A stretch of DNA of 64,000 nt from Oscillospiraceae bacterium (GTDB lineage Bacteria > Bacillota > Clostridia > Oscillospirales > Oscillospiraceae): positions 3,059 through 67,058 of the forward strand of contig SVMF01000012.1 in NCBI GenBank assembly GCA_015067565.1. The letters run 5' to 3'. Below the pieces are notes generated by a model. It was not told the origin of the DNA, searched no databases, and saw nothing but the letters and a program-made list of their open reading frames with translations. The position numbers were made by a program, and so were the translations under genes. Below are positions 12,701-56,595 of this stretch, one piece after another (the first letter of the stretch is position 1; the number at the start of each line of letters is the position of its first letter).

Positions 12701-14585
12701 CCTGAACGGAAAGCCCACAAATGATGAAAACAATGCACAGTTCATCGGTTGGTCCGCCGTCAAGATCGACCATTCCGACAAAGAAACCACCTATTATGCC
12801 GCTGGCAGTAAGTTCACTGCAACCGGAAATACTACCTTGTACGCACTTTACAGCTATAAAGTCAGCAGTGGTGTCTGCGATCCCTTTGTTTACGGTGAAA
12901 GCGGAAAATTCGTTTTGGCAGCTGTCATGAACGGAACTTATTATGCCATTCCGAATTCCTTCACCCTCTCGAGCGGTATGATCTATCCCACAGTTATCAC
13001 CGTCGAGAATGGCGAGGTCACCGATCCGAACGCTGCGAATTTTGAAGTCATCCTGACCTATTACACTTCTGGCTATTACACAATAAGCAACGGCAGCAAG
13101 TATCTGGCCTACTCCGGCAGCTCCACCAGTTTTGCTGAAGCAGCAACGACCGCGTACAATTGGCAAATCAGCACCGGTACTCGCGGCACTTGGAGAATCA
13201 GCGAGACAAGCACGACAGGCACTCCCAGAGCGATTGCCTACTATAATCTCAGCACGAGTGCTCCGCGTTTTGGTGTGTATTCAGCGTCCAACCTGACCTC
13301 ATCCTCTACTCTGTTCTACGAAATGGAGATTCTACCGATCAGCGGAATGGGTGCAACGACCTACTACACAACCAGTTTTGAAATTTGTGAACACAAGACA
13401 ACTGAGGCCATCAGACTCGAGGCAACCTGCACCAAGCCCGGCTCCATTACCTACATCTGCACCAACTGTAAGGACGTTGTTTCCACCGAAACCATTCCGA
13501 CCGCCGAGCACAGCTTCACCTACACCAATAACGACGAAGACCATACCATTGGATGCGCAAATTGCAACTACTCCGTCACCGAGCCCCACACATACGAAGA
13601 CGGCAATTGCATCTGCGGTGCAACCGAGGTTGTTGAGCCGACTGAGGAATATGTTGAGACCCTAAAGCCCAGCATGAGCATCGTTGTCGGTGCGGAAATG
13701 AGCGTTGCATTTACCGTCAATCAGTCCATGGTATCCAAGTACGAGAGCTTCTACCTCGTTGTCGAGAAGGATATGGTTGGCGCAGAGCCCAAGACGGTTA
13801 CCTTCGGCTACGGCGAAGGCCAGACGGCTCTGACTCCGATGCCCAATGCAACAAATCCGTTCCTGCACAATGCAAGCTTCACCGGCCTGACCGCAAAGGA
13901 AATGGGCGACGAAATCAGAGCAACGCTGTACTGCGCGGACGCAGAAGGCAACATCTTCTACGGCCCGACACAGACGGACTCCGTCAAGGATTACCTGATG
14001 AGAGGCCTGGATCTGGCAACCAGCACCGATGCAAAGAAGACCATGTATGTCGATATGCTCCGCTATGGTGCAGTCGCACAGACCTACTTCGACTACGACA
14101 CGGACAATCTGGTTACGGACGATCTGACGGAGGAACACCTGACCTACGCAACCACCGAGATCCCCGAGGCAGTCGATGGTTCCAAGGCAGAGGGCGGCCT
14201 CGGCACGCTGAACACCAGCGTCGTTTTGAAGGCAAGAGTCACCCTGACGCTGTCCCATCTGAAGCCGGGTGCAAACCTTGCAAACATGAAGTTCGTTGTC
14301 AAGGACGCACTCGATGGCACTGTTATCAAGGAGCTGCCTGCTTACAACCTCAACCCCGTCATGATTGCAGCAGACTTTGACGATGTTGGCGCAAAGCAGA
14401 TGAGAAGACTCATCACCGTCACTCTGTACGACGGCGACACTGCCATTACCGATACCGTGACCTGGAGCGTTGAGAGCTATGTTGCAAAGACTCGTGCAAC
14501 GAGCACCGACGTAGGCCAGATCGATCTGGTCAACGCAATGCTCACCTATGGTGATGCCGTTGCTGCCTACATGGCAACGCAATAA
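9741..14585 (+). CDS. Protein A: secreted endonuclease I (Bsn/EndA-type) modular surface protein with the conserved C-terminal module
   Basis: Signal peptide; REHIWPRS..DLHHLRP..VNS, KGDIARILLY, QGNRNVFIDYPE. Also four 69-aa repeats, two InlB-B-repeat-like (Listeria-Bacteroides) domains, beta-rich modules, Cys/His repeats, cap and tail. AGGAGG RBS. Confidence 0.88.
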   Translation: MKKHCLSSRLLAFLLMIAIALSMLPSVTVFAATGTLTRNTAVRHVVCEQLSTKAKAYYTGSNVYESLSQLSGVSAPTNSYTATQNNPLYTALQTLMTDTQQKISEYNPSGETNTELSYLWDYTDASAGSNEYLYFYTDIPADDYGTSELQREHIWPRSRASFDYLNGGADLHHLRPSIGTVNSAKSDHRFANVRNNYSTYSTTTIDGKDVIWVNANSGVLEVRDNVKGDIARILLYVYCRWAQPNLYSDVSNSYLPPFDEDDTSNNGKRMIENFDTLLEWMEMDPVDNWEMTRNDQTENYQGNRNVFIDYPEFAWLMFNETPPTTMKTPSGKAASGSSAPAYAITAISSNTNYGTVTLNGNVITATPKSGYEVSGYTLMSGTATVAQNGNVFTVNASSDCKIRINFRAITYTITAYANNSAYGSVSVNGYTITATPNEGYQVSGYTLISGSATVSRNGNIFTLTPKANSTVQINFSPIAFNITATPNYTSYGSVTVDGYTVTATPKAGYEVVGYELLSGSATVVQNGNVFTLTPTSDCNIQINFAKIVYALSATTNSNAYGTVSIDGYIITAIPNDGYIANGYTIVSGTATVVQDGNTFTVTPTSDCVIRINFVSLTGCTIDFITPDGVSQNPISGYDGETITLPTPTGTPKADAYDYTFLGWTTSEVNNATNEPTILKAGQSYILHENVTLYALYTYAIGATNETHYTRVTDTSKLKDGAQVVIAAQDSSYAIATTQSSSSRSAASITKNTSNDTITFSGSVCVFTLRPGTKSDTWAFYDSTNNGYIYASSSKSNAMNTQATINDNSSFTITFSTDGAIITAQGANTMNTIGFYGFSFFYAYFTCYSATSSSRGPVDLYMMTSVGTTYYTTVLESVCEHDFVEDKRIEPDCTTAGKATFKCTLCGESYDEELPALGHSYSYTSTVAPTESEQGYDIYTCSDCGLTMNQNYTQPTGYNYRVDFVVPEGVTAPASITSNSITGATLPSLNGKPTNDENNAQFIGWSAVKIDHSDKETTYYAAGSKFTATGNTTLYALYSYKVSSGVCDPFVYGESGKFVLAAVMNGTYYAIPNSFTLSSGMIYPTVITVENGEVTDPNAANFEVILTYYTSGYYTISNGSKYLAYSGSSTSFAEAATTAYNWQISTGTRGTWRISETSTTGTPRAIAYYNLSTSAPRFGVYSASNLTSSSTLFYEMEILPISGMGATTYYTTSFEICEHKTTEAIRLEATCTKPGSITYICTNCKDVVSTETIPTAEHSFTYTNNDEDHTIGCANCNYSVTEPHTYEDGNCICGATEVVEPTEEYVETLKPSMSIVVGAEMSVAFTVNQSMVSKYESFYLVVEKDMVGAEPKTVTFGYGEGQTALTPMPNATNPFLHNASFTGLTAKEMGDEIRATLYCADAEGNIFYGPTQTDSVKDYLMRGLDLATSTDAKKTMYVDMLRYGAVAQTYFDYDTDNLVTDDLTEEHLTYATTEIPEAVDGSKAEGGLGTLNTSVVLKARVTLTLSHLKPGANLANMKFVVKDALDGTVIKELPAYNLNPVMIAADFDDVGAKQMRRLITVTLYDGDTAITDTVTWSVESYVAKTRATSTDVGQIDLVNAMLTYGDAVAAYMATQ
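10764..11591 (+). repeat. Four tandem 207-bp (69-aa) repeats in protein A
   Basis: Consensus ITA..N..YG.V.V.GY.+TATP..GY.V.GY.L.SG.ATV.QNGN.FT+TP.SDC.I.INF. Confidence 0.9.
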
Positions 14586-14591
14586 GAATAA

Positions 14592-14626
14592 CGGACCCGG
14601 GATAGGCTAAAGCCTGTCCCGGGTTT
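14592..14626. terminator. Hairpin after A (CCCGGGATAGG family)
   Basis: ACCCGGGATAGGCT-AAA-GCCTGTCCCGGGTTTT. Confidence 0.75.
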
Positions 14627-14652
14627 TCGTATGTGTATTTACACGCACCATT

Positions 14653-14677
14653 GTAGGGAACGGCTATGGCCGTCCGC
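14653..14677 (+). repeat. REP-like GTAG-hairpin; second copy at 55545-55567 (minus)
   Basis: GTAG-GGAACGGC-TAT-GGCCGTCC; GTAG plus a short palindrome is the REP architecture. Confidence 0.45.
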
Positions 14678-14890
14678 CGGGAGACCGCTGTATCCCCCTG
14701 TGGATAGCAGGTTTGCAAGGTCGCATGTCATTGTGTGTAAGGTGAGGAATCTGTGTGCTTGTATGTATTCTTCCCTAGTCAAGATTTTTCGGTCATGTTT
14801 TCTCCTTAAAATGAGATGGCATGTGGTGCCTGCAAACGTTTTCCGTGCGACGCGACACTATAAACACGCCACAATATTGTGCGTTACAGT

Positions 14891-14928
14891 AAAACCCGGG
14901 ATAGGCTGGCCTATCCCGGGTTCTTCGG
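14891..14928. terminator. Hairpin after B (CCCGGGATAGG family)
   Basis: AAAACCCGGGATAGG-CTGG-CCTATCCCGGGTT. Confidence 0.8.
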
Positions 14929-14931
14929 TTT

Positions 14932-17900
14932 TTATTGGGTTGCCATGTAGGCAGCAACAGCGTCACCGTAGGTGAGCATTGCGTTGACGAGGTCAATTTG
15001 GCCTGCATCGGTGCTGGTTGCACGAATCTTGGCAACATAGCTCTCAACGCTCCAGGTGACGGTCTGCGTGATCGCCTCTTTTCCGTCATACAAAGTCACC
15101 GAGATCAATCTTCTCATTTGCTTCGCGCCGACATCATCGAAATCTGCACTGACCATAATGCCATTTGTAGTTGCTTCAATTTCCTCGATAATCACGCCCG
15201 TTTTGGCATCCTTGACAACAAACTTCATGTTTTCAACATTCGCTCCCGGCAGTACCGTATTAAGTGACAAGGTGACTCTTGCCTTCAATACGACGCTGGT
15301 ATTGAGGATCTTCTGATTGCCCACGGCATTCGATAAATCCGTTGCATCCGGTAGCGTATTGGTTGCAAAGTCCCTATACTCCTCGGGCAGATCATCCACA
15401 ACGAGATTGTCTTCATTGTAATTGAAATATCTCTGTGCAACAGAGCCGTATGTGAGCATATCCACATACATCGTCTTTTGCGGTTCGGTTGTCGTATCAA
15501 GAGCAAGCCCTCTGATGAGGTAGTTTTTGATGGAATCGGTCTTTGTCGGGCCGTAGTAAATCGTGCCATCGGCAGCTACGGCATAGAGCGTTGCAGAAAT
15601 GGTGTCACCCATTTCCTTAGCCGTGATACCGGTGAAGGCGCAGTTGAACATAAACGGTGTGCCGGTAGCAGGCAGTGCCGTAAACGGTTCATTGCCATCT
15701 GCAAATCCATAAGTCACCTGCTTCTTATCACCATCGAAGACCTCCTTCTCGATGACAAGATAGAAATCCTCATATTGGCCAACCACCGAATTCATGACCG
15801 AGAATGCAACGCTCATTTCAGCACCGACAATGATGGACATGCTTGCCATGAGATCCTTATTATAGTGCACAGCAGCTTCATCCGCACCGCAAATGCACTT
15901 GCCATCTTCGAAGGTGTGGATTTCAGCGATACGATAATCGCAGTTTGCGCAGGAAACTGTGTGCTCCTTTCCGTTATTAGTGTAGCTAAGCTTATGCCCC
16001 AGCGCAGGCTTGACCACAAAGGATTCGGGGATGTCATAAATATAGGTATCATCGGTAAAATAACGCAGGCAATTTTTGCATTGATAATAGCTGCGGTTTC
16101 CATCTTGTGTGCAGGACGGCGACACAGCAGCATAGAAATCTCCATCATGACCCTTGGCCGGGATTTCCTCTGTTGTGATAAAAATCTCACAATCAGCACA
16201 ATAAACTCTCTGCTCGCCGCTTTCTTCACAAGTGGCTTCTCTGTCCACGATCATCGTTTTTTCACTGTGATTGCACAACGCAGCATTGCACCATATGCAG
16301 GTGAAATTCTCAGCCTCGTGCGGACGGAGCTCGGAATAGTCGCAATGATTACATTTGACAATGTGGTTTTCACCGTTGTCGGTGTACACGCAATCGTGAC
16401 CGGTAGCCGCAACTTCGTCTGTGATATAGCTGTCGAAACAGACTCTGCAGGTATGCTTCGTAAAGCCATGTTCCGTGCAGGTCGCAGCCGTTACCTCGGA
16501 TTCATAGCTATGCCCGATGGCTTCGAGAATCTCGCGTTCGATTTCCTCGTTGCATACCAGACAAATGACACTTCTGAAGCCATCCTCGGTGCAGGTTGCT
16601 TCCTGCAGCGTTTCGGTGGTCTCACCGTGACCTAAGGCAGGGATCGTTTCCGTTGCGATCACCGCTTCGCAATCAATGCAGGTGAAGGTTTTCAATCCAT
16701 CTTCCGTGCAGGTCGCAGCCTGTACAGTTTCGTTGGTTTCTCCGTGTCCGGTAGCCGAAATTGCCTCAGTCTTGATCACCTCATCACACACAAGGCAGGT
16801 GATCGTTCTAAGGCCATCTTCAGTACAGGTCGATTCTATGATCGTTTCTTCGGTCTCACCGTGGCCCAGAGCTTCGATTGCTTCGATGTAGCTTTCTCCG
16901 CAAGCACAAGCAAACAGCTTAGTGCCCTCTTCGGTGCAAGTGGGGGCCAGGACGAGAGTTTCTTGGTAGCTGTGTCCCAGCGCATCGGTAGGATCATCTG
17001 TGTAGGTATCGGGGCAATTCTTACAGGTGTAGGTCGTATATCCTTCGTGAGTACAAGTGGGATCTGTTACGACCGCCTCATAATCGTGACCTAATGCCTC
17101 GATCACAATACTTTCTTCATAGCCGCAGGTTTCGCAAACAACGCCCTTGCTTCCCTCTTCGGTGCAGGTCGGCTCTTTGAGCAATGTCTCTGTGCCAAAG
17201 CGATGCCCAAGCGCAGGAACGATCTGTTCCTTTGAGCTTTCGCCACAGTTGGAGCAAGTAGTTGTTGTATAGCCATCGTCCGTGCAGCTCGGCGGCGTCA
17301 CACTCGAGGTATAGGTGTGTCCGAGCGGTTCGACATAGTCCTGATCATATGAATCATTGCAACCATTTTGGCAAGTGTAGGTCGTAAAGCCCTGCTCTGT
17401 GCAGGTCGGAGCCGTCACAACCGCCGAATAGTTATGCGCCAAGGGAGCAATGTATTCGTCATAGTCATAACCACAAACCTTGCAGGTATACAGATGATAA
17501 CCTGGCTGTATGCAGGTCGCAGGCTGCGGTGTTGTTTTGGTAAATGTACATTTTGTATGCGTCGAATCCACAAACGATTCCTGATAGATTGCCAAGAAGG
17601 TCGAATTGCTCTTGCTTGTGGAGTTATAGATCGTAAATGCAGCAAAATGGTTGTTATTAAAATTAGGGGAAATTGCCCCACCGGTATTGTTGCAGACAGG
17701 AATCGTAAGGGACTTTGTCTTGTACGGTTCAATCGTCACACTGAGATTCAGACGTGTATAGTACCCGTTATTCTCAGTTCCGCCGTATGTATAGGTCACA
17801 TCATTATAGGTATAGGTTGAATTGCTTGTGCTGACCGTGCATCTGGACTTATCAACAACAAATCCGCTATACAACTCGATTCGCAGAGATTTAACCCTCG

Positions 17901-19188
17901 TTTCGCCTGCGACCATATTGAAATTAACCGTCTTGTTTGCGGCATTATAAGTAATCTTGACGTGGGCGGATGTGCCACCTCTGAAGACCGCGGCGCCTAA
18001 AATATCACCGCCGTAGGTCGGATCGCCATTGACCTCTCTTCGGGCATCGTTAAGATATTCTGCTTGTGCGCGCGCTTCATAGCCTGAGGGATTTAATCCG
18101 TTTCTGCCACTTGTGTCGTCATTGACGAAGGCATAGGCCTGAATGCCAGCTACGACATTGCAACCCTCTTTGGCGATATTTTTACAAAGGGTTGCAGGAA
18201 ACTTTGTGTTGTAGCTATTGCCGTTGAGGAAGAAATAGTCACCAAAGTAGGACATGACGAGAGTATAGTCGATATACGGCGCCATGGCGGCAAAATCCTG
18301 ACCATAGGTTGATCTGCCGGCAAGGTTCATTGCAGGCTCCGGCATGGTTGCGGTGGTGAGGATCAGGCCGCTTTTCAGATTCTGTTTTACAGATTTAATG
18401 AATCCAGTGATCGTTTCCTGACGGAACTGGCGGAACTTCTTCGCAGCAGCACCATCTGCATTGACAAGGTTGGTCAGACTCGCATCATCCGCCGTACCGA
18501 CATCCTTGAAAACGACATAGCCATCTGCATCGGTAGAATAGGTATATCCATGCTGCTTGCACATTGCTTTCGCAACCGTGTTGAAATAGCTTGCGCCCAA
18601 ATACGTTCTCAGATCGGTATTCCAACCGTAATAGTCACCGCCATAGCGGATCGTGTCAAGGTGGATGCCGTCGAGTCCGCTGATGGCCTCAAGCTGATCG
18701 ACCAGGCCGTTGAAATAGGACTTGTAGCTCGAGTTACGCAGATCAACATAACCCTTTCTGTCGACATAGTAAGAGCTGCTGGAAGAATGTGCATTATTCT
18801 TGTATCCAAAACGGAAATGGTAAACTGCATGTTTCGGGTTAGACCTCAGATAGGTATTATCTCGTGAGCACATCATCCACGCATGAACACGCATCGAAGA
18901 CGGTGCATACGAAATAATCTTCTTGATCGTCGAGGTGCTGAAACCGCCATCCTCGCCTTTGACAAGAACATAAACATCAGTTACGCCTCGGTTTGCAAGA
19001 TTGACAATATTCGTCTCGCTGACGGTATAATTGGACGGGTTCAACCAAAAACCATAAATCTTCTGATCCGAACAATTCAGATTGTCATTTGGTACAGGCG
19101 TGACCGCTGAAGCCGTCGCAGGAAACATACCCAGAAGCAATGTAACGAGCATAAATAGAGCAAGGCTTCGCTTTAAATGATGGACCAT
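14932..19188 (-). CDS. Protein B: secreted GHL10/DUF187-like TIM-barrel glycoside hydrolase with Cys/His stalk and conserved tail
   Basis: Signal peptide; GFWL...GVTDVYVLVK...VHAWM...YVD.RN..YK...GLDGIHLDTIRY; ~12 PTCT..G..C..C..ALGH repeats; cap and tail; AAGGAG RBS. Confidence 0.75.
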   Translation of the reverse strand: MVHHLKRSLALFMLVTLLLGMFPATASAVTPVPNDNLNCSDQKIYGFWLNPSNYTVSETNIVNLANRGVTDVYVLVKGEDGGFSTSTIKKIISYAPSSMRVHAWMMCSRDNTYLRSNPKHAVYHFRFGYKNNAHSSSSSYYVDRKGYVDLRNSSYKSYFNGLVDQLEAISGLDGIHLDTIRYGGDYYGWNTDLRTYLGASYFNTVAKAMCKQHGYTYSTDADGYVVFKDVGTADDASLTNLVNADGAAAKKFRQFRQETITGFIKSVKQNLKSGLILTTATMPEPAMNLAGRSTYGQDFAAMAPYIDYTLVMSYFGDYFFLNGNSYNTKFPATLCKNIAKEGCNVVAGIQAYAFVNDDTSGRNGLNPSGYEARAQAEYLNDARREVNGDPTYGGDILGAAVFRGGTSAHVKITYNAANKTVNFNMVAGETRVKSLRIELYSGFVVDKSRCTVSTSNSTYTYNDVTYTYGGTENNGYYTRLNLSVTIEPYKTKSLTIPVCNNTGGAISPNFNNNHFAAFTIYNSTSKSNSTFLAIYQESFVDSTHTKCTFTKTTPQPATCIQPGYHLYTCKVCGYDYDEYIAPLAHNYSAVVTAPTCTEQGFTTYTCQNGCNDSYDQDYVEPLGHTYTSSVTPPSCTDDGYTTTTCSNCGESSKEQIVPALGHRFGTETLLKEPTCTEEGSKGVVCETCGYEESIVIEALGHDYEAVVTDPTCTHEGYTTYTCKNCPDTYTDDPTDALGHSYQETLVLAPTCTEEGTKLFACACGESYIEAIEALGHGETEETIIESTCTEDGLRTITCLVCDEVIKTEAISATGHGETNETVQAATCTEDGLKTFTCIDCEAVIATETIPALGHGETTETLQEATCTEDGFRSVICLVCNEEIEREILEAIGHSYESEVTAATCTEHGFTKHTCRVCFDSYITDEVAATGHDCVYTDNGENHIVKCNHCDYSELRPHEAENFTCIWCNAALCNHSEKTMIVDREATCEESGEQRVYCADCEIFITTEEIPAKGHDGDFYAAVSPSCTQDGNRSYYQCKNCLRYFTDDTYIYDIPESFVVKPALGHKLSYTNNGKEHTVSCANCDYRIAEIHTFEDGKCICGADEAAVHYNKDLMASMSIIVGAEMSVAFSVMNSVVGQYEDFYLVIEKEVFDGDKKQVTYGFADGNEPFTALPATGTPFMFNCAFTGITAKEMGDTISATLYAVAADGTIYYGPTKTDSIKNYLIRGLALDTTTEPQKTMYVDMLTYGSVAQRYFNYNEDNLVVDDLPEEYRDFATNTLPDATDLSNAVGNQKILNTSVVLKARVTLSLNTVLPGANVENMKFVVKDAKTGVIIEEIEATTNGIMVSADFDDVGAKQMRRLISVTLYDGKEAITQTVTWSVESYVAKIRATSTDAGQIDLVNAMLTYGDAVAAYMATQ

Positions 19189-25300: not shown

Positions 25301-25301
25301 T
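19371..25301 (-). CDS. Protein C: secreted ComEC/Rec2-type metallo-beta-lactamase-fold hydrolase with CBM-like domains, Cys/His stalk and conserved tail
   Basis: Signal peptide from MRKIKQW (25301); VVDGG, SHLHIDH (24552-24569), LLTGD, QIPHHG. Two LFFDF...TIDYLYIG jelly-roll-like domains, one InlB-B-like repeat, ~7 stalk repeats, cap and tail. Confidence 0.8.
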
Positions 25302-25412
25302 AAAAATTCCCCCTGCTTGCATTTCGCTTTATCAGTTTTATACTATCATACGCTCCCCTCTTTTTCAATACTTTTCCATGTTGTATAGCTCTATATTTCA
25401 AGCAACATAAAG

Positions 25413-38302: not shown

Positions 38303-38304
38303 CA

Positions 38305-38895: not shown

Positions 38896-38927
38896 AAAAA
38901 CACCGTCCATATGTAAGCATTTGCTCA

Positions 38928-38957: not shown

Positions 38958-39800
38958 ACTTTTTGCGCAAAAAAACTGCCAAGGCTGCAATTTCAGCTGT
39001 TCGTATGCCCTTTGGGCAGCAATCTGCGTTTCAAACAGGCCATAAACCGCAGAGCCGCTACCGGTCATCAGCGCACCGAGTGCGCCGTTTGCAAGCAGTT
39101 CTTGCTTGATCTGCGCAATTTGTACATCGTCTGCCGCTTCTTCGAAAACATTGCACAGCAACGACGAAGCCTTGCGAACATCGCCATACCTCAGCGCATC
39201 ACACATCGCCTTAGTGTCAGGTCTGTTTCTGATATGGATCTCATCAAGCTTGGCATACAGCTTCGGTGTAGAGAACGAGATCTGCGGCTTACACACGACA
39301 TAGTGCATCTCAGGCACAGCTCCCAGTTTTGTCAGGCGCTCTCCCCGCCCCTCGGCCAGACACAGCGACCTGACCACGCAAAACGGCACATCAGAACCGA
39401 TCTTCGCACCGAGCTCAGCAAGCTGTGTTTCGTCAAACGGTGCATCGTAATGCCGATTGAGCATCCGCAGCACCGCAGCGGCATCAGCGCTTCCGCCAGC
39501 CAGTCCTGCCTCAGAAGGAATGCGTTTGCAGATCGTAATCTCGATCCCGTTGGGGTCAATGTCCACGGCATCAAAGAACACACGAGCCGCCTTCCACACA
39601 AGATTGCGTTCATTCAATGGTATGCCACTGACATTGCAGCGAACAGACCACTCTCTGCCGGTGTTCAGCTCCAGCGCAATGTCATCGCACAGTGAAATGC
39701 TCTGCATCACTGTGCAGATATCATGATATCCGTCAGGCCGTTTTTCCAGGACATCAAGCGTCAGATTGAGCTTTGCATACGCGGTTTCATGCAGGATCAT
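38952..39800 (-). CDS. ispE: 4-diphosphocytidyl-2-C-methyl-D-erythritol kinase
   Basis: AKLNLTLDV...DGYH, KRIPSEAGLAGGSADAA, GSDVPFC, LMTGSGSAVYG. Confidence 0.96.
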   Translation of the reverse strand: MILHETAYAKLNLTLDVLEKRPDGYHDICTVMQSISLCDDIALELNTGREWSVRCNVSGIPLNERNLVWKAARVFFDAVDIDPNGIEITICKRIPSEAGLAGGSADAAAVLRMLNRHYDAPFDETQLAELGAKIGSDVPFCVVRSLCLAEGRGERLTKLGAVPEMHYVVCKPQISFSTPKLYAKLDEIHIRNRPDTKAMCDALRYGDVRKASSLLCNVFEEAADDVQIAQIKQELLANGALGALMTGSGSAVYGLFETQIAAQRAYEQLKLQPWQFFCAKSV

Positions 39801-42082: not shown

Positions 42083-42117
42083 TATTACATTAGTTAATGT
42101 ATGTGGGAGGTATACAT

Positions 42118-48100: not shown

Positions 48101-51100
48101 AGAATGCAAATCCTGTCGGCGGTATTCAGGCAGATAACACTACTTATGTACCGAACGGAGAATGGCAGATTATCACGCTCGATATCAACTCCAGCGCAGT
48201 TGGCAGAACTATGATGGGTATCCGAATTGATCCGACCAATACAATATCCACTGACTCTAAGACCGGCAATTATGAGATCGACTGGGTCTATATCGGTCCG
48301 GATATTCCTGACACCGATCTGTTTGCATGCACTTCCACTGAAAGCAGTATATTCGATACAGTTACGCATGTAGAAGATATTGCGTTTGTCAAGTTTACGG
48401 ATAGCGAAACATCCTTTATGGCAATCAATGGCGCTGTAAACCCGGAAACCGGCCACTTCCGCGGTCAGTTTGAAGAATATGAGGTTGAGGGCATCGAAGC
48501 AAAACTCGCCCATTCGGATATCCTCTTGAAAAATACCGATCTTAGCAACTATGTACTTCGCGAGGGCGACATTCTGAAGCTTCGAATGATGGTTTCTGAA
48601 AACGAAGTGTTTGAAGCGGATTCGGTGTATGCCGAGGTTTATGCTGGCTTAGACAACGAAGATTTCTTTGAACAGGAAACGATGTTATTATCCGATGATG
48701 GTGATTATTATATTTACACCATTTCTGTTCCTGCAGAAATGGCAGGTCGAAGCATTTCTGAAGTATTCATTAAACTGGACGCAACTTTCATTAAACCGGA
48801 GGATACGACCAACTCTGATGAACCTTCAGAACCGGAAGATACCCCTGAACCTGTTGCATTTGAGATCGACTGGATCTATGTTGGGCCGGATAAGCCGTTG
48901 ACGATATCCCACGAAGGTGTGCTTTATCCCGATCATTGGAGCGAATGGACTACTGATGGTACAAGCGAAGTTTCCTTGCAGACGATGACCAAGGTGGACG
49001 AATCTGAAACTTACGGCTACGATGCAGTCTATGCTGACGATTCTACCTATTCCAACGACAGCACCCTGTATGTCGTCGGCGCGGGCGTTCCGAATCTCGT
49101 CTACAAGACAGATGAAAATGGCGCGTATGTCTTTGATCAAGCCGGAAAGAAGATTTATGTCATTGACTATGAGTCCGTTCTTGCATATTCACAGACTTCT
49201 TTCACCTTCACCGGAACCGGATTCGACATCATTAGCCGCACCGGTGTAAACCAAGGTGCATTGCGTGTCGTGGTTTGTGATATGGAAGGCAATGTCAAGA
49301 AGACAGCTTCAGTTATCAACAAGGGCAACTCTGAGCTCTATCAGATTCCGGTTGTTTCTGTTGAAAAGCTGGATTACGGCACCTATACCGTTCATATCTT
49401 TGTCAACTCGTCATATACCAATACGGATTACCCCGTACTCAACCGTGGTGGCGAATTCTATTTTGATGCTGTACGCATTTACAATCCGATTAACACCAAG
49501 TCGACTGATGCAGACGGTGCTTATGCATATTCGCTCTATCAGGCACACGGCGAAGCAGACCCATCCTTCACAGAGATTAGAAATATGCTGATCGGCCCTG
49601 AGGATGTAGAGGGTAGCTTTAATGCAGGCGGCGAATTAGCAGGCGTTGTCTATCTCGATGCAAAAGATGCAGAAGGCAATGATTACGAGATTACCATTGA
49701 CAACTACAATGCAGTAGGCCCGAACAATGAGGTCTATTTGAAGAACGGCAACGCCATTGCCTTCAAACTGGAAGTAACCGGCGAAATTCCAACAAAGATT
49801 TCCATTGGCGCAAAGAGTGTTGGAACAACACCTGCCGCGTTGCTGACAGACGTTGCTACCAAAGCTCCGGCAGTGCTGCCAAGCGGCACTGCTACGACGA
49901 TTGCGACAAGTACAGAGATGTACTATAGCTTGAATATCTCTGAATGGTTAATCGAAGGAGATAAGTCTTACGCATATGTCACGGTTGCCAATACCGGCGA
50001 TGGACTACTGTCCTTAACAAACATCAAGCTTTCTTATGCAGCAGAGCCCGCAACTAATGCAAAGAGTATCCGATTTGTATTTGACGCAGCGATGCGTGAG
50101 GCTCTTGGTATGCAAGCAGAGCACACTTATACGTATATCAACAATGGTGAAAACCATACTGTCGGATGCGCAGGATGCGACTTCAGCGAGACTGTTGATC
50201 ATACATACGTGGATGGCATTTGTGTTTGCGGCGCCGTTGAGATTGTTGAGCCGAGTTCCGTCTTTGTTGAAGGGTTAAAACCCATCATGGCAATCACTGT
50301 TGGTGCTGATATGAGTGTCGCCTATACCATCCCGAACGAACTTATCAGTCAGTACGACAAGTTCTACCTCGAAGTTGAGAAGGAATATGCTGACAAGGAG
50401 TCTGTTAAAATCACCTACAACCTCGAGGATCTGCAGGCCGTGCCCAACTTCGACACTCCTGTCCTCTACAATGCGCTGTTCAAAGGCATTAACGCCAAGG
50501 AGATGGGCGATAGAATCACCGCAACACTCTATGGCATCGGTGAAGACGGAACCATCTATTACGGTCCGACTGTTGCCGACTCCATTAAGGACTATCTGAT
50601 GCGTGGCCTCGATCTTACAACCACAACCGACGCTAAAAAGACCATGTATGTTGATATGCTCAACTACGGTGCTGTCGCACAGGCCTATATGGGCTACAAT
50701 GCGCAGAATCCTGTCAATAAGGATCTGGCAGAAAGACACCTTGCCTATGCAACCACTACCCTGCCCGAGGCAAACGATCTCAGCGACATAAACGGTAATG
50801 GTTATGAGCTCAGTGCAAATGTTCAGCTTCTGTCCAGAGTCACGTTGACTATGACCGCTATTCTGCCCGAAGCAAATGTCGAAAATATGAAATATGTTAT
50901 CAGTGATGCTCTTACTGATGAGGTTATTACTGAATTGCCTGTAACAATCAAAAATAACATCGTCTGCACCGGTAGCTTCGACAACGTCGGCGCAAAACAG
51001 ATGCGAAGACTCCTGAAGATCACTCTCTTCGATGGCGATATTGCCATCTCTCGCAGTATCACATGGAGTATTGAAAGCTATGTGGCTCAGACCCGCACGA

Positions 51101-51180
51101 CCACCGATCTTGCGAAGATCGATCTTGTCAACGCACTTCTCGCCTACGGTGATTCCGTCGCTGCATATATGGCAGAATAA
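42118..51180 (+). CDS. Protein E: ~3020-aa secreted protein with DUF4886/SGNH-like head, fibro-slime (PA14-like) domain, CBM-like repeats and a divergent copy of the tail
   Basis: GGAGG RBS then MGKLNQ and a signal peptide; ILCIGNSFS...LYIGGCSL...WHMTWAY...RDGYHL; FIGDDDVYFFIN..LVLDIGGSH...YAERHTTGSN (~46020-46310); repeats ending YEIDWVYIGPD; cap and tail. Confidence 0.8.
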   Translation: MGKLNQLFSRLLSLLLLLSMVLGMIPFTVSTMSTKVSAAEPWDVDGDGTLSILCIGNSFSSDAMQYIPQIIDSLGITTIYLGNLYIGGCSLATHWTNANGDLAKYDYYTATNTSGSWGKKTSQKISTALKSRSWDYISMQQRSQDSGLASTYNSNLTNLVNYVKNNAPNAKLIWHMTWAYQGNSNHAGFSNYSNNQTTMYNGIVNAVKTKVVTNANINIIVPNGTAIQNARSSLIRDFLCRDGYHLNYNIGRYIAGLTFVKALGIDISNVTFKPANVPEIWQIIAKESATNAVSNPYAKTTSAHTNPANEPDHYKLLTVDYTHNAYWHSTKEGNYNTLYKPSSSEATYREFYGSNKRFTASTIPVGSVIILTSGYKYRPEAWVSNKIQTSREGATTVAHTAVTDEWWKNKDGTSFLYRAFNVSLSSGAQIASGLDIDNNILKIYVPKTDAVVTKTPEELYSYITNLPDPIPNNHRVTWTNVSDIPNISGKKYIVVSDASTTGNKYYAWDPITPRLFETWNAASVSVNSTSGTSRVYDAGENWGIKFTYDATFDYKQAGYTDSNVPAAQRWFSFKFEVPENELDSTKVYLTNEVNYSSSTGYASSLAANVWRLQNTAFYTSLPEHKNSSGTVKTTTTWSKRNARAHLYFNINSDRFNFIWWPQFRDEPVAIGDKTQRTSVRSQFNNPSTEDPYFYFDTSKEYANTTNNAVNYACFFLFEVENRGNPEELYDKLKEAQKYINVEYTYYPTQYTDFLKALGEVYDFYINNNGSGGTQAEFDAQETKLQNAMTALNAYNQIQYLGIPYNKRVYKDNLADYQNGKLEGTYFISRFYNGNKGRVHSFIDFNNLTSAGAYGIHRYREIGGQMNATDLTHAITLRYVKGTSEGYTMQLENRNFFRSSGTKFTTMGEPQTFYFGPSDYTGMTGGIQIDNVDGKRLFCEAQTSFKWYFATVGAEQENRGDFHLWQLSPTTLELYRALKFIQPYCNQTEAVNRYPADLYREFITFMSSAIKAYNDCNNNNYFSNATKKAELENIAKQVREWADKLTQTDQTLSYIDIPIEVFDFKADGMMFEHDNSGTNYYGLSASAASVSPALPGSSGTGLIEPQLVDGNPVYKQQTIDYVASAIMLDKGASNQPITNLINCGADYNETFRNKMKNITKGSWDLTLQKIGGKNGGDLAWSNVETAYDLAYYALTYIWREVPTTDANKLSDGDRYNIRVPEREIIRLYRTSNSGYYTFFSDNNTAYSGNRLYNTFPTIANPTALPQYADFMPVDGLGFETGGKNTDTGTNYANNGSIDKLATDNFHYSMHAYGSFVYYEDQELFFEFIGDDDVYFFINNTLVLDIGGSHSPLGGTVNLKDVTLADGTKLVDEQIYSFDMYYAERHTTGSNMKFSTNIKIVDTDTFTTKGQYIEISGDDDMVNKATGMGSEILDNGLVKVGDTIAYSFNVVNSHDVSATDLIFEDETLGTYISKNIISLTNEERTNIVTDITDIEVYYHTSEKVGESFVIDNTIPVVKTVDQIKAMIEEVNAANEIEPGNSLPEGSYRVTMTSEQDLMDLLGLGVPSNCQIVIYGFKRLFVEGDQNKTIKNELKMACSYLPWASGDTELNVRALTGTAGRILKVASLSGIPSAIKTECVIDYGKPLSIDCNGTITMADGVTINGFVGFTKNGYHGEFLKSKPADLANSIHTKNGRFDYRLGTVYYTLFNMLSEVESVYAVFSLSGCTITDTAGKARNYPYILAEINIVPATTVYYETDFDTIDFVGDNSAYTMIGLEGKQSPHAIIDFESNDTTTWSTYHTTATKADGVLKGSIIGDDPRLPMNTGSVNYTVASGDVVKLRMKIDKGTGSNVEVFFLTNKNTTYSGTYMTNPTSYTPDGEWSIVTLPINSNTVGTTISQIRIDPLVNYTTTGNYEIDWVYIGPDNDDTAWTGANKMTATLADGVLKGSVTGGDPFVRMTCASSTYNHTITSSDVVKMRIKSDASIGTGAQVFFLTDQNANPVGGIQADNTTYVPNGEWQIITLDINSSAVGRTMMGIRIDPTNTISTDSKTGNYEIDWVYIGPDIPDTDLFACTSTESSIFDTVTHVEDIAFVKFTDSETSFMAINGAVNPETGHFRGQFEEYEVEGIEAKLAHSDILLKNTDLSNYVLREGDILKLRMMVSENEVFEADSVYAEVYAGLDNEDFFEQETMLLSDDGDYYIYTISVPAEMAGRSISEVFIKLDATFIKPEDTTNSDEPSEPEDTPEPVAFEIDWIYVGPDKPLTISHEGVLYPDHWSEWTTDGTSEVSLQTMTKVDESETYGYDAVYADDSTYSNDSTLYVVGAGVPNLVYKTDENGAYVFDQAGKKIYVIDYESVLAYSQTSFTFTGTGFDIISRTGVNQGALRVVVCDMEGNVKKTASVINKGNSELYQIPVVSVEKLDYGTYTVHIFVNSSYTNTDYPVLNRGGEFYFDAVRIYNPINTKSTDADGAYAYSLYQAHGEADPSFTEIRNMLIGPEDVEGSFNAGGELAGVVYLDAKDAEGNDYEITIDNYNAVGPNNEVYLKNGNAIAFKLEVTGEIPTKISIGAKSVGTTPAALLTDVATKAPAVLPSGTATTIATSTEMYYSLNISEWLIEGDKSYAYVTVANTGDGLLSLTNIKLSYAAEPATNAKSIRFVFDAAMREALGMQAEHTYTYINNGENHTVGCAGCDFSETVDHTYVDGICVCGAVEIVEPSSVFVEGLKPIMAITVGADMSVAYTIPNELISQYDKFYLEVEKEYADKESVKITYNLEDLQAVPNFDTPVLYNALFKGINAKEMGDRITATLYGIGEDGTIYYGPTVADSIKDYLMRGLDLTTTTDAKKTMYVDMLNYGAVAQAYMGYNAQNPVNKDLAERHLAYATTTLPEANDLSDINGNGYELSANVQLLSRVTLTMTAILPEANVENMKYVISDALTDEVITELPVTIKNNIVCTGSFDNVGAKQMRRLLKITLFDGDIAISRSITWSIESYVAQTRTTTDLAKIDLVNALLAYGDSVAAYMAE

Positions 51181-51261: not shown

Positions 51262-54200
51262 ATGAAAAGAATTCTTTCACTTCTGTTGTTGGTTGCCCTT
51301 CTGATCACAACAATACTGCCCGGTGTCCAGACTGCGTATGCTGAGGAAGCTGTTCCTGTCAGGCCCACGAAAGCAGCCTCTTGGGATAATGACGGCGACG
51401 GAACGCTGTCGATCTTATGTATCGGCAACAGCTTCTCTGTCGATATGATGCAATATGTCTACAATATTGCAAAAAACCTCGGCATCAGCAAAATCCACCT
51501 CGGTAACCTCTATATCGGCGGCTGCACGCTGAACAAACACTACACCAATGCAAAAAACGACTCTGCCGCTTATACCTATTACACCAATACCAGCGGCTCA
51601 TGGACAACCACTTCCAGTTATAAGATGAGTAAAGCTTTGACCTCCAGAAGCTGGGACTTTGTTACCATGCAGCAGGCCAGCGGCGACAGCGGCACGGCAA
51701 GCACCTACAACTCTGACCTGACCAACCTGATCAGCTATGTCAAGGGCAAGCTCAATAGCTCCAGCACAAAGCTTGTTTGGCATATGACCTGGGCATATCA
51801 GGGCGGCTCGAGCAAGCTTTCCAATTCCGTCTACTCCAGTCAGACGGATATGTACGACAAGATCATCGCAGCTGTTAAGAGCAAGATTGTAAGCAACAGC
51901 AATTTTAAGATGATTATCCCCAACGGCACGGCGATTCAGAATGCCAGAACCTCTCTGATTAAGGACAACCTCACCAGAGACGGCTATCACCTGAACTATA
52001 ACTTCGGCCGTTACATCGCAGGATTGACCGTCGTCAAGACGCTCACCGGCTTGGATATTAGCAAGGTGACCTATAAACCCGGCAATGTCAACTATGCTCT
52101 GCAGCAAATCGCTATTGAGTCAGCCAATAATGCGGTTGCCTCTCCTTACGCTAAAACGACCTCCGCACACAGCAATGTTGCTACCAGTAAGCTCTACGCA
52201 AGACTCTATCCGAAGCTGACTGCAGGTGGTTACTGGAACTCCGCTAACACCACCTATAACAAAATCATTACCACAGCTTCAAACTCTCCGTATTTTCACT
52301 GCACTGAGCAATTTACAAAGGACACCTTGCCGATGGGCAGTGTCATTAAGGTCTCCAGCGGATATGAATACCGTCCGGATGGCTGGCTCACCGATGCGAA
52401 GCAGGATTCTGCGAACAGACCCGGTATTACGAGCAAATCCTACGCTGTTGCTCTGAACGAATGGTGGGGTGATTGGACAATCCGTGCCTTCAACATTTGC
52501 TCCACTACCGATAATAAGGATATTTCCAAAATGACCGCAGAGCAAATCCATGCGATCTTCCAGATATATGTTCCGATCGAGGATTTGAACACAAAATACT
52601 ACCAGCTCCGACTGAACATCACACCGCTGGCTTATTGGCACTCCTCCAATTCCACACATTACAATAAGCTCATTACCAGTAGTGATATCAACCAGAGATA
52701 TTTCGCTACGCAGCAAATTCCGAAGGCAAATATCCCCAACGGTTCCGTCATCAAGGTCAGCAGCAGTTGGCAGCATCGTCCCGAAGGTTGGGTAAGCAAT
52801 GCTGTGCAAGACAGCAGCACAAGACCTGCCGTTCGTACAGACCGTTCCATTTTGGTCAACAGCACATGGCATGGAAAATTCACGACTCGAGCTTTTAATG
52901 TTTCCAAGCAAGATAATTCCTCTCTGGAAGGTGTTGCACTGTCGACCTTACAGTCTGCGTTTAAGATCTACATCCCTGCATCGAGCCATTCACATACCTA
53001 TTCTACGACGGTAACAAAGGCTGCAACTTGCACGGAAACCGGCATAAAGACACATGCATGCACCGTCTGTGTTTACAGTTACACCGAGACGATCCCTATG
53101 GTTGCTCATACCGAGGTGACCGTCCCCGCCGTACTGCCCACTTGTACAGCCGTTGGCCTTAGCGAAGGCAAGAAGTGCTCTGTCTGTAATGCGGTTCTCG
53201 TTGCGCAGACCGAGTCCCCTGCTCTAGGCCATAACGAGGTTATCGACGATGCAATCGATGCCACCTGTACGGAACCCGGTCTGACCGAAGGCAAACATTG
53301 CTCTATCTGTAACGCGGTCATTGTTGCGCAGGAAGAGGTTGCCGCACTCGGCCATCGATATGACAGCGTGGTAACGGATCCGAACTGCACCGACAGTGGC
53401 TACACCACCTATACCTGCAGTGTCTGTAACGATACTCTCGTGGATAACCAAGTCGATGCACTCGGACACACGGAAGCCATCGACGAAGCTGTTGCGCCGA
53501 CCTGCACCGAAACCGGCCTGACCGAAGGCAAGCATTGTTCTGTCTGCAACGAGGTTCTTCTTGCACAGGAAGAAGTTGCCGCACTCGGCCACAGCTACAA
53601 TACCGTCGTAACGGCTCCCGATTGCACCAACGGTGGCTTCACTACCTATACCTGCAGCGTCTGTTTCGATAGCTATATTGCTGACGAAACCGAGGCCCTC
53701 GGCCATACCGAAGCAATCGATGAAGCTGTTGAGCCGACCTGCACCGAAACCGGTTTGACCGAAGGCAAGCATTGCTCCGTCTGTAACGAGGTGCTTCTTG
53801 CACAGGAAGTAATTCCTGCAGCAGATCACAGCTACGACGAAGGCAAGATCACAACCGAGCCGCTTTGCGGTTCTAACGGTGTCAAGACCTATACCTGCGT
53901 AAACTGCGGTCATGAAAAGAACGAAAGCATCGAAGGCACGATTCACACTGCAGAATATGTTGCAATGGTTGCACCGACCTGCACGGAAGACGGCCTCGAG
54001 GCTCATTACAAGTGCATCTATTGCAAAAAAACCTTCATTGATGAAACGTGCATCTATCCCCTCCCCGTTGAGCATATGGTAATCTCCGCAACTGGTCACG
54101 ACTACGACAAAAATGTTACCGCACCCACCTGCGAGGATAATGGTTATACAACCTATGTCTGCTTCTTCTGCAAAGACACTTATACTGCAGACGAGACGGA

Positions 54201-55287
54201 AGCAATCGGCCACAGCTATACCTATACCGACAATGGTGAGAAGCACACTGTCGGTTGCTCCAACTGCGACTATTCCGTCATCGAGGCACATACCTATGAA
54301 GACGGCAAGTGTATCTGCGGTGCGATCGAGGTTGTCGCGCCCAAGGAAATGTACGTCGAGAGCCTGAAGCCCAGCATGAGCATTGTCGTTGGTGCTGAAA
54401 TGAGCGTTGCATTCACTGTTCAGAATGCAATGGTATCTAACTATGAGAGCTTCTATCTCGTTGTCGAGAAGGAAATGATCGGCGGAGAGTCCAAGACTGT
54501 GATCTTCGGCTACGGCGAAGACCAGACGGCTTTGACCCCGATGCCCAATGCAGCAAATCCGTTCCTGCACAATGCAAGCTTCACCGGCCTGACCGCAAAG
54601 GAAATGGGCGATCAGATCCGTGCAACTCTGTACTGCGTGGATGCAGACGGCACGCTCTATTATGGCCCAACCCAGACAGACTCCATCAAGAGTTACCTGA
54701 TGAGAGGTCTTGACCTTGCAACCTCGACTCCCGAGAAGAAGACGATGTATGTCGATATGCTCCGCTACGGCGCAGTCGCACAGATCTACTTCGGCTACGA
54801 TACGGACAATCTGGTTACGGACGATCTGACGGAGGAGCACCTGAACTCCGCAACCACCGTGATCCCCGAGGCAGTCGATGGTTCCAAGGCAGAGGGCGGC
54901 CTCGGCACGCTGAACACCAGCGTCGTTCTGAAGGCAAGAGTCACCCTGACGCTGTCCCACCTGAAGCCCGGTGCAAACCTTGCAAACATGAAGTTCGTTG
55001 TCAAGGACGCACTCGATGGCACGGTCATCAAGGAGCTGCCTGCTTACAACCTCAACCCCGTCATGGTTGCTGCTGACTTCGACGATGTCGGCGCAAAGCA
55101 GATGAGAAGACTCATCACCGTCACTCTGTACGACGGCGACACTGCCATTACCGATACCGTGACCTGGAGCGTTGAGAGCTATGTTGCAAAGACTCGTGCA
55201 ACGAGCACCGATGCAGGCCAAATTGACCTCGTCAACGCAATGCTCACCTACGGTGACGCTGTTGCTGCCTACATGGCAACCCAATAA
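51262..55287 (+). CDS. Protein F: secreted DUF4886/SGNH-like protein with Cys/His stalk and conserved tail
   Basis: Signal peptide; head closely paralogous to E (GDGTLSILCIGNSFS...RDGYHLNYN.GRYIAGLT); two aromatic-rich modules; ten stalk repeats; cap and tail. Confidence 0.82.
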   Translation: MKRILSLLLLVALLITTILPGVQTAYAEEAVPVRPTKAASWDNDGDGTLSILCIGNSFSVDMMQYVYNIAKNLGISKIHLGNLYIGGCTLNKHYTNAKNDSAAYTYYTNTSGSWTTTSSYKMSKALTSRSWDFVTMQQASGDSGTASTYNSDLTNLISYVKGKLNSSSTKLVWHMTWAYQGGSSKLSNSVYSSQTDMYDKIIAAVKSKIVSNSNFKMIIPNGTAIQNARTSLIKDNLTRDGYHLNYNFGRYIAGLTVVKTLTGLDISKVTYKPGNVNYALQQIAIESANNAVASPYAKTTSAHSNVATSKLYARLYPKLTAGGYWNSANTTYNKIITTASNSPYFHCTEQFTKDTLPMGSVIKVSSGYEYRPDGWLTDAKQDSANRPGITSKSYAVALNEWWGDWTIRAFNICSTTDNKDISKMTAEQIHAIFQIYVPIEDLNTKYYQLRLNITPLAYWHSSNSTHYNKLITSSDINQRYFATQQIPKANIPNGSVIKVSSSWQHRPEGWVSNAVQDSSTRPAVRTDRSILVNSTWHGKFTTRAFNVSKQDNSSLEGVALSTLQSAFKIYIPASSHSHTYSTTVTKAATCTETGIKTHACTVCVYSYTETIPMVAHTEVTVPAVLPTCTAVGLSEGKKCSVCNAVLVAQTESPALGHNEVIDDAIDATCTEPGLTEGKHCSICNAVIVAQEEVAALGHRYDSVVTDPNCTDSGYTTYTCSVCNDTLVDNQVDALGHTEAIDEAVAPTCTETGLTEGKHCSVCNEVLLAQEEVAALGHSYNTVVTAPDCTNGGFTTYTCSVCFDSYIADETEALGHTEAIDEAVEPTCTETGLTEGKHCSVCNEVLLAQEVIPAADHSYDEGKITTEPLCGSNGVKTYTCVNCGHEKNESIEGTIHTAEYVAMVAPTCTEDGLEAHYKCIYCKKTFIDETCIYPLPVEHMVISATGHDYDKNVTAPTCEDNGYTTYVCFFCKDTYTADETEAIGHSYTYTDNGEKHTVGCSNCDYSVIEAHTYEDGKCICGAIEVVAPKEMYVESLKPSMSIVVGAEMSVAFTVQNAMVSNYESFYLVVEKEMIGGESKTVIFGYGEDQTALTPMPNAANPFLHNASFTGLTAKEMGDQIRATLYCVDADGTLYYGPTQTDSIKSYLMRGLDLATSTPEKKTMYVDMLRYGAVAQIYFGYDTDNLVTDDLTEEHLNSATTVIPEAVDGSKAEGGLGTLNTSVVLKARVTLTLSHLKPGANLANMKFVVKDALDGTVIKELPAYNLNPVMVAADFDDVGAKQMRRLITVTLYDGDTAITDTVTWSVESYVAKTRATSTDAGQIDLVNAMLTYGDAVAAYMATQ
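52987..54210 (+). repeat. Ten Cys/His stalk repeats in F, including alternating 41-aa and 38-aa subtypes
   Basis: [33 protein letters not shown] near-identical at ~53470 and ~53707. Confidence 0.9.
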
Positions 55288-56595
55288 AAACCGAAGAACC
55301 CGGGATAGGCCAGCCTATCCCGGGTTTTGCTGTAACGCACAATATTGTGGCGTGTTTATAGAGTCACGTTGTACTGTTCCCGTTTGCGGATACCACATCA
55401 CCATCTCATTATGAGGAGAGAACATGACCGAGAAATCTTGACTAGGGAAGAATACATATAAGCACACAGATTCCTCACCTTACACACAATGACATGCGAC
55501 CTTGCAAACCTGCTATCCACAGGGGGAAACAGTGGTCTCCCGGCGAACGGCCATAGCCGTTCCCTACAATGGTGCGTGTAAATACACATACGAAAACCCG
55601 GGACAGGTTTTAGCCTGTCCCGGGTCCGTTATTCTTATTACGTTGCCATGTAGGCAGCAACGGCATCACCATAGGTGAGCATTGCGTTGACAAGGTCGAT
55701 CTGGCCTGCGTCGGTGCTCGTTGCACGAGTCTTTGCAACATAGCTCTCAACGCTCCAGGTCACAGTGTCCGTGATGGCAGTGTCGCCGTCGTACAGCGTG
55801 ACGGTGATGAGTCTTCTCATCTGCTTTGCGCCGACATCGTCAAAGTCTGCTGCGATCATGACGGGGTTGAGGTTGTAAGCCGGCAGCTCCTTGATGACAG
55901 TGCCATCAAGTGCGTCCTTGACAATGAACTTCATGTTTGCAAGGTTTGCACCGGGCTTCAGATGGGACAGCGTCAGGGTGACTCTTGCCTTCAAAACGAC
56001 GCTGGTGTTCAGCGTGCCGAGGCCGCCCTCTGCCTTGGAGTTGTCAACTGCTTCCGGAGTCTCCATGGTAGCATAAGCCATGTGAGCTTCGGTCAGGTCA
56101 GCGTCAACCAGGTTCTCCGTGTCGTACTGGAAGTAGGTCTGAGCCACCGCGCCGTAGCGGAGCATATCGACATACATGGTCTTCTTTGCATCGGTGCTGG
56201 TTGCCAGATCCAGGCCTCTCATCAGGTAATCCTTGACAGAGTCGGTCTGCGTCGGGCCGTAGAAGATCTTGCCATCTGCATCCACGCAGTACAGAGTTGC
56301 ACGGATCTGATCGCCCATTTCCTTTGCGGTCAGGCCGGCGAAGCTTGCATTGTGCAGGAACGGATTTGCTGCATTGGGCATCGGGGTCAAAGCCGTCTGG
56401 CCTTCGCCGTAGCCGAAGGTCACGGTCTTGGACTCTGCGCCAACCATATCCTTCTCAACGACAAGATAGAAGCTCTCATAGTTGGAAACCAGAGCGTTCG
56501 GAACGGTGAATGCAACGCTCATCTCAGCACCGACAACAATGCTCATGGTCGGCTTCAGCGCCTCAACATATTCTTCAGTCGGCTCAACAACCTCA
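55170..56595 (-). repeat. Right arm of the ~1.4-kb inverted repeat (end of F + spacer + G tail)
   Basis: Reverse complement of ~13625-15050. Confidence 0.9.

Follow-up and report, generated by a model that had tools for sequence, protein, structure and literature searches.

The presence of about 40 kb of chromosome, including addA, addB, spoIIR and ispE, between the two arms of a kilobase-scale inverted repeat raises the question whether the segment is a genetic switch or whether the repeat has another origin. The locus lies in a stretch of 64,000 nucleotides from an uncultured Oscillospiraceae bacterium (assembly GCA_015067565.1, contig SVMF01000012.1, positions 3,059 to 67,058 of the forward strand), which is referred to as the window and to which all coordinates refer unless a contig is named. 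An initial annotation, made from the letters alone, had described a potential invertible cassette, with inverted duplication and misassembly as alternatives. The analysis presented here suggests, with a probability of about 0.78, that the arms are an incidental inverted repeat arising from a multigene family whose common C-terminal tail evolves in concert, and that they are passive substrates of recombination and not a regulatory switch. The family comprises seven giant genes in the window, named A to G, which are arranged with the arms and spacers as follows (nt, nucleotides).

Gene A, 9738..14585, plus strand: 1615 residues; signal peptide, Endonuclease_I head, Flg_new repeats, Cys-rich repeats, tail at 13488-14585.
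Left arm, 13618..15117, no strand: 3' part of the A tail, spacer sp1 and the 3' end of the B tail.
Spacer sp1, 14586..14931, no strand: 346 nt, with palindromic GC-rich hairpins at 14596-14623 and 14893-14922.
Gene B, 14932..19188, minus strand: 1418 residues; signal peptide, Cys-rich repeats, a more divergent tail at 14932-16020; no Pfam head.
Gene C, 19371..25322, minus strand: 1983 residues; Lactamase_B-fold head, tail at 19371-20477.
Gene D, 25457..31456, minus strand: 1999 residues; tail at 25457-26563; no Pfam head.
Housekeeping block, 31594..41038, minus strand: addA, addB, spoIIR, ispE and a DUF1015 gene, from Pfam and open reading frames.
Gene E, 42097..51180, plus strand: 3027 residues; DUF4886 (SGNH-superfamily) head, tail at 50086-51180.
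Gene F, 51262..55287, plus strand: 1341 residues; DUF4886 head, tail at 54190-55287.
Right arm, 55102..56602, no strand: 3' end of the F tail, spacer sp2 and the 3' part of the G tail; reverse complement of the left arm.
Spacer sp2, 55288..55637, no strand: 350 nt, reverse complement of sp1 at about 95%, with hairpins at about 55290-55333 and 55597-55624.
Gene G, 55638..59744, minus strand: 1368 residues; Endonuclease_I head (49% amino acid identity to A), tail at 55638-56732.

The inverted repeat of about 1.4 kb, non-coding spacer included, was confirmed: positions 13625-15050 are the reverse complement of 55170-56595, with 1305 of 1420 columns identical in a gapped alignment (91.9%). The repeat search of the window returned the pairs I1 (13729-14819 and 55401-56491, 1091 nt, 92% complementary) and I5 (14821-15156 and 55063-55398, 87%), and gapped alignment placed the zone of high identity at 13618-15117 against 56602-55102. 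Identity reaches 95-99% in the core of the match (14218-15017) and falls outside the zone to 66% left of 13618 and 64-79% right of 15117. The length and identity of the repeat exclude a chance origin, and the window contains no Ns. The left arm is made up of the last ~960 nt of A, the 346-nt spacer and the last ~120-190 nt of B. Open reading frames and Pfam matches also bore out the mirror-like layout from nuclease A to nuclease G, with A forward, B, C, D, addA, addB, spoIIR, ispE and the DUF1015 gene reverse, E and F forward and G reverse. The single C/T change reported by the initial annotation was likewise read from the sequence, where CAA in A stands against TAA in G and the proteins end in ...ATQ* and ...AT*, respectively.

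The arms are the best of many tail pairs and not a unique pair. Seven copies of the tail lie in the window, some in each orientation (repeat pairs I2-I4 and D1-D4), and the genome has many more. The last 350-390 residues are common to all seven proteins at 52-88% amino acid identity, and any two of the A, C, F and G tails share 85-92% DNA identity, whether they stand in direct or in inverted orientation (I1-I4, D1-D3); the C tail, for example, is 91% identical to the A tail over 842 nt in inverted orientation (I4). In the source samples, which derive from goat or sheep faeces (ruminant gut), exact tail unitigs and k-mers in Logan were found at 3-19 times the single-copy depth. In run X1 a tail unitig had a depth of 322 against a single-copy depth of 16.9. 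The unitigs of spacers sp1 and sp2 were at single-copy depth.

Comparison of heads and tails gave conflicting histories. The A head is 65% identical to its orthologue in the related metagenome-assembled genome (MAG) SIG473 and 49% to the G head, whereas the A tail is 51% identical to the tail of the same orthologue and 86% to the G tail. The tail ends at the A/B and G/F junctions are 92-99% identical across the arms, against 49% amino acid identity for the A and G heads. Both nuclease genes have separate orthologues in other genera (on contigs L012 and L063 for A and on L068, adjoining mgtC, for G), and the inverted duplication suggested earlier is borne out by full-length paralogy of A and G, each with an Endonuclease_I head. 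The nearest relative of every tail is a tail in its own genome. Mean within-genome identity is 65% in the window (maximum 87%), 75% in SIG473 (maximum 95%) and 91% in a Faecousia MAG, whereas identity between genomes is 37-51%.

The tails are also mosaic. Along blocks of 75 nt the nearest neighbour of the A tail alternates between G, C and F, and quartet-informative sites among A, C, F and G are divided 31/24/19 over the three topologies. These sites are clustered (permutation p about 1e-4), with 13 consecutive AG|CF sites at 13982-14042, and exact blocks of up to 137 nt are shared between tail copies. Synonymous divergence is 0.37-0.49 among the tails of A, C, F and G and is saturated between the A and G heads. 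The spacer is 95-97% conserved, equal to the adjoining coding DNA. The conflict between heads and tails, the mosaics, the synonymous divergence and the spacer together point to ectopic gene conversion over an old inverted duplication.

Purifying selection is evident from dN/dS values of 0.14-0.29 in all tail pairs, and it could be argued that the tails are alike solely to fit one species-specific partner, with no exchange of DNA; dockerins are an example of species-specific docking modules. This explanation is highly improbable. A non-coding spacer as conserved as the coding DNA beside it makes selection on protein alone insufficient, the long exact blocks speak for exchange, and the clustered conflicting phylogenetic signal along the tail requires recombination.

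Gene conversion among the tails could account for the repeat in the following way. The giant secreted proteins, of 1.3-3 thousand residues, each have their own signal peptide, a differing head, Cys-rich repeats and the common tail. A and G are old full-length paralogues in inverted orientation, with A converging on B and G on F, each across a spacer of about 350 bp. Ectopic homologous recombination among tail copies, presumably RecA-type gene conversion, would keep the tails alike within the genome. The most recent exchange between these convergent junctions may then have spanned the end of one tail, the spacer and ~100-190 nt of the tail of the adjoining gene, which would be the 1.4-kb repeat. 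Now and then the arms could also yield an inversion of the 40 kb, which should be phenotypically silent. Such an inversion would probably be mildly deleterious, as it turns addAB, spoIIR, ispE and DUF1015 against their present strand.

The orientation of the segment was assessed from public contigs. Goat-faeces enrichment samples (JGI 3300024268, 3300024270 and 3300022661) contain this strain at 100% identity. Contig L002 from another sample (JGI 3300024270) matches window positions 4932-19554 at 100% and spans the whole left arm. Contigs L089/L001 and L096, with 7 similar places, cover 13977-41456 at 100%, and L091, with 10 similar places, covers 32118-55822 at 100%, running through F and sp2 into 185 nt of a G-type tail end. 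Contig L088 covers 56154-62376, with the G head and part of its tail, adjoining mgtC. All contigs that cross an arm junction, the hybrids excepted, have the arrangement of the window, and among the contigs found no junction of A with F or of B with G was seen. Exact (100%) Logan unitigs from 4 runs tile the right arm completely. The five housekeeping genes within the segment are on the same strand as most housekeeping genes of the flanks, namely efp, the M24 peptidase gene, xerD, ispH-S1 and plsC, and GC skew is negative inside and outside the segment. A rough and weak split of skew at third codon positions (GC3 skew) over the seven giant genes gave a replication component of about -0.05 inside and about -0.10 outside. 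Strand bias and GC skew thus offer circumstantial support for a long-standing orientation. The GC3 skew of individual genes was dropped as an orientation test, since codon usage dominates it, and a joint on "opposite strands" in run X3 was only an alignment between the ends of the C and A tails.

Several observations weigh against an incidental repeat maintained by conversion. The arms are only ~92% identical and synonymous divergence is ~0.4 over the whole tail, so conversion was not very recent, and the proteins of a genome could owe some of their similarity to selection for a common partner. The 332 nt at 55822-56154 in the G tail are without an independent long-contig bridge, and the link from G through sp2 to F comes from the window and exact unitigs. 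The public runs, in the form of short Logan unitigs, break in the tails, where the unitigs are 60-150 nt long and none links across an arm. Finally, three contigs (L003, L090 and L097) switch from one copy to another inside a tail and could be real recombinants.

These hybrid contigs bear on two further explanations. In L003 (8900-9700, assembled by MEGAHIT) A is followed by a flipped B, and the tail reads in turn as 100% A, 100% F, a stretch about 80% identical to everything, F and C. In L090 (22900-23400) the F tail switches at window position 55023 to the 3' end of another tail, followed by a third spacer copy and a NAGPA-domain gene, and in L097 (21470-22100) the switch, at 19985, is from C to another tail end, followed by lspA. 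These contigs are probably assembly chimeras from short-read repeat collapse, with real recombination the less likely origin. They were rejected as proof of recombination, given that the switch points lie in collapsed repeats, that L003 is a mosaic of three sources and that normal ends are present in the same samples; the normal junction of the C end and B in the sample of L097, for instance, is on L009. The caution about misassembly in the initial annotation was therefore justified. That the window itself is affected, with one arm or its link mis-joined from repeated tails and the 40-kb bracket not as drawn, is unlikely. Most other public contigs end inside tails, L090 joins F to a different convergent gene, and the unbridged 332 nt leave room for such an error, as do the hybrids. 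Against it, L002 crosses the whole left arm without a mismatch in another sample, 11 contigs carry E, F, sp2 and 185 nt of a G-type tail end at 100%, L088 carries the head of G with part of its tail beside mgtC, both spacers are at single-copy depth, exact unitigs from four runs cover the whole right arm, and the adjacency of G and mgtC is kept in a relative (L068).

A flip-flop polymorphism, in which RecA-dependent crossovers between the arms (40 kb), or between pairs such as A and C (4.8 kb), maintain coexisting isomers, is also rather unlikely, if less so than an assembly error. The arms contain exact blocks of 125, 86, 83, 68 and 61 nt which, to judge by their length, should suffice for RecA-type recombination although they are set in 8% divergence; the conversion mosaics indicate that the copies do interact, L003 shows B flipped between A and C tails, and a yeast region couples conversion with inversion (PMC9731477). 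Yet in no contig does A stand beside F or B beside G. The tail in L003, an A-to-F-to-C mosaic with one stretch that matches none of the four, is typical of bubble-collapsed MEGAHIT paths, and samples with hybrid contigs also hold the complementary normal ends (L009 and L097 in the same sample). Moreover, 92% identity invites rejection by mismatch repair, and strand bias and skew point to a long-standing orientation. The proposal of the initial annotation that the segment could flip without breaking genes stands in principle, but no contig carries the junctions that a flip would create.

The remaining possibility is a programmed cassette or shufflon, in which a site-specific recombinase flips the segment and thereby switches expression or swaps coding parts. 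The mirror-like layout of surface-protein genes and the presence, ~1 kb to the left of A, of a gene for a tyrosine recombinase would fit such a system. The recombinase is the following gene.

Tyrosine recombinase XerD, 7834..8781, minus strand: TIGR02225, 340.8 bits against a cut-off of 329.6.

This gene lies among efp, M24 peptidase and HAD phosphatase genes, and it is assigned to XerD by an equivalog model, whereas it scored 72-76 bits against tyrosine-invertase models with cut-offs of about 221. XerD is a housekeeping enzyme of dimer resolution. The scan with family models found no invertase at the locus, and XerD was the sole recombinase nearby. The repeats are ~1.5 kb long, diverged (92%) and present at many loci, not short conserved sites, and the tail family extends over dozens of loci without a mirror layout. 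By the anatomy of the locus, every giant gene would retain its 5' end, its signal peptide and its promoter region, and the parts exchanged encode near-identical tails; an inversion would therefore alter no coding sequence or promoter, merely the strand of addA, addB, spoIIR, ispE and DUF1015, and nothing would be switched. A programmed cassette is accordingly the least probable of the explanations considered. The reading as a dedicated invertible cassette was not borne out, given a tail in many copies, XerD as the only recombinase, no expected change in expression or coding, and clean contigs in the arrangement of the window.

What the arms contain, a repeated gene tail, deserves more attention than the bracket. 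The tail module (~365 residues) matched no Pfam or NCBIfam family, even at E<=5, and a PDB sequence search with the tail gave no relative; in the same databases it showed no homology to the known anchoring domains SLH, CWB2, LPXTG, dockerin and choline-binding. An AlphaFold2 model from an alignment of 18 sequences had a confidence score (pLDDT) of 90 and predicted two beta-sandwiches, with helices (helical hairpins) after each of them, and ahead of both a small Cys-rich beta unit. A Foldseek search with this model returned only generic Ig-like (Fab) matches from the PDB, with TM scores below 0.3. An exhaustive search with a profile hidden Markov model, which included the Cys-rich repeat, gave 2670 matches at E<=1e-30 among 1.84 billion representatives, some of them via the Cys-rich repeat alone. 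In the top matches whose best stretch is the tail module, the module is C-terminal in long proteins, mostly of 1000-3000 residues and up to ~6600.

Among GTDB genomes, 303 stretches encode the tail module, often at contig ends. At least 39 tail loci were counted in SIG473 (Oscillospiraceae), 13 in CAYVLD01 and 9 in one Faecousia MAG. The species of the window is not represented in this set, and the best tail identity in the GTDB scan was 51%. Exact-protein look-ups in an incomplete index gave no record for A, G or the IspH-S1 protein, although A is present on L002. A signal-peptide-like N-terminus is present in all seven long open reading frames A to G, and one C-terminal module thus ends many signal-peptide proteins with unrelated heads. 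The most likely role inferred for the tail is that of a shared module for attachment or docking at the cell surface. Carried by nucleases, SGNH-like hydrolases and other exoproteins, it is a candidate route for the display of surface enzymes in this gut lineage, which is abundant but little studied. A large, confidently folded and unannotated module that evolves in concert within genomes is, together with its genome-wide homogenisation, the part of the locus most worth pursuing. A bolder proposal is that the tail is an undescribed, lineage-wide docking or anchoring module of Oscillospiraceae, present on thousands of giant proteins and in dozens of copies per genome, and species-specific through genome-wide conversion, that its copies really reshuffle chromosomes, that L003, L090 and L097 are true recombinants and that flippable intervals are numerous, the 40-kb segment among them; this combination is speculative and, as a whole, doubtful. 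A practical consequence concerns short-read assemblies of Oscillospiraceae from the ruminant and human gut, which the tails systematically interrupt and sometimes join wrongly; synteny in MAGs is therefore untrustworthy there without long reads.

The spacers between the convergent tails share a common structure. The hairpins at their ends belong to one family of ~30 nt (CCCGGGAYAGGY...), two per spacer, which are able to pair together; they resemble terminators, one for each of the convergent genes. The third copy of the spacer mentioned above is in L090.

Spacer sp3, L090:23190-23740: flanked by a further pair of convergent tails; identity about 93%, length greater by about 190 nt.

The convergent gene beyond sp3 encodes 1716 residues with the NAGPA domain and is not in the window. 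With paired hairpins at its ends and at least 3 copies in the genome, the spacer has an outline like that of a miniature inverted-repeat transposable element. A sigma-70-like promoter was looked for in the spacer and none was found. A non-coding RNA in the spacer was considered and rejected: the fold z-scores of -7.0 and -6.5 arise from pairing of the two terminal hairpins with each other, and an Rfam scan of the window gave no match. Two JGI metagenome contig scans with 33-mer and 28-mer patterns from the spacer also gave no match.

Synteny of the addAB-ispE block in related genomes had been suggested as a check, and it held in part: addB-addA-D and G-mgtC are adjacent in SIG473 and CAYVLD01, whereas the order is otherwise rearranged. 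The comparison covers these more distant relatives, the species in the window being absent from the GTDB set. In two related MAGs addA has a D orthologue downstream of it, and efp is 97% identical to that of SIG473, which places the bacterium in Oscillospiraceae. SIG473 differs from the window in that plsC-ispH follows closely downstream of addB-addA-D; the order of genes at the giant genes therefore varies between genera. The A orthologue of SIG473 (L012:2945-9661, SVKY01000004.1) and a second Endonuclease_I paralogue (47% to G) stand head-to-head; there the two nuclease genes are divergent neighbours, whereas in the window 40 kb separates them.

Other features of the giant genes and their surroundings were also recorded. 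A 49-nt motif (repeat family D5) occurs 11 times, at 16446-17418, 21248-21296, 27067-28642 and 57560-57608, and encodes Cys-rich units of the form HT..C..C...H....G.C.CG, which fill the middle of all the giant proteins ahead of the tail. The units are zinc-ribbon-like in look and have no Pfam match. Gene F contains a tandem duplication of a 237-nt unit with 74% identity (53220-53693). Its head and that of E belong to DUF4886, a family of the SGNH superfamily whose activity is not known (PMC9487903). Long antisense open reading frames, opposite DUF1015 at 39773-41026 (plus strand) and opposite tails at 53224-55284 (minus strand) and 19440-20708 (plus strand), are most likely spurious and a result of codon composition. 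At 61219-63189 (minus strand) an open reading frame of 656 residues fuses IspH (LytB) to S1 RNA-binding domains, with 3 S1 stretches above the Pfam threshold, and is 88% identical to its SIG473 orthologue.

How does the locus compare with known systems? Known C-terminal modules shared by Gram-positive surface proteins for anchoring or docking include SLH, CWB2 and dockerin. The tail resembles them as one C-terminal module on many secreted proteins with diverse catalytic heads and as a module more similar within species than between species, but it has no sequence match to these families, and no specific PDB match was found for the fold predicted for it, two Ig-like sandwiches plus helical hairpins. 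The fim and hin systems, the R64 shufflon and the Bacteroides invertons are site-specific invertible switches. They share with this locus inverted repeats near surface-protein genes and a tyrosine recombinase gene nearby, whereas their short specific sites, dedicated invertase and changed expression or coding all fail to apply here. A striking kilobase-scale inverted repeat around essential genes is thus read as a by-product of a repeated gene tail and not as a switch, a mostly deflationary result.

Two systems based on homologous recombination are closer. On Saccharomyces chromosome XIV, inverted gene pairs under continual homogenisation flank a 24-kb flip/flop region, and each orientation is met repeatedly (PMC9731477). 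The likeness is a segment of tens of kilobases between inverted paralogous gene pairs under homogenisation. In yeast, however, the two orientations are documented inside species as well as between them, and over 4 kb the repeats hardly differ, whereas here one orientation was seen and the arms are more diverged. The second system is the tufA/tufB pair, for which inverted paralogy, gene conversion and inversion were reportedly described by Hughes in 2000. In Salmonella and E. coli these inverted paralogues are kept alike by gene conversion and are able to invert the intervening DNA (PMC5485169, PMC6735719), and a fitness cost of the inverted form is noted for Salmonella (PMC6735719). The tuf genes are about 99% identical, against 92% for the arms, and the inverted isomer known for them was not seen here; the present repeat is also the 3' module of otherwise unlike genes, in many copies and not two, and includes an intergenic spacer. 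What the two systems have in common are inverted paralogous coding repeats of ~1 kb, concerted evolution that would proceed by RecA-type conversion, and inversion as a possible by-product of crossing over.

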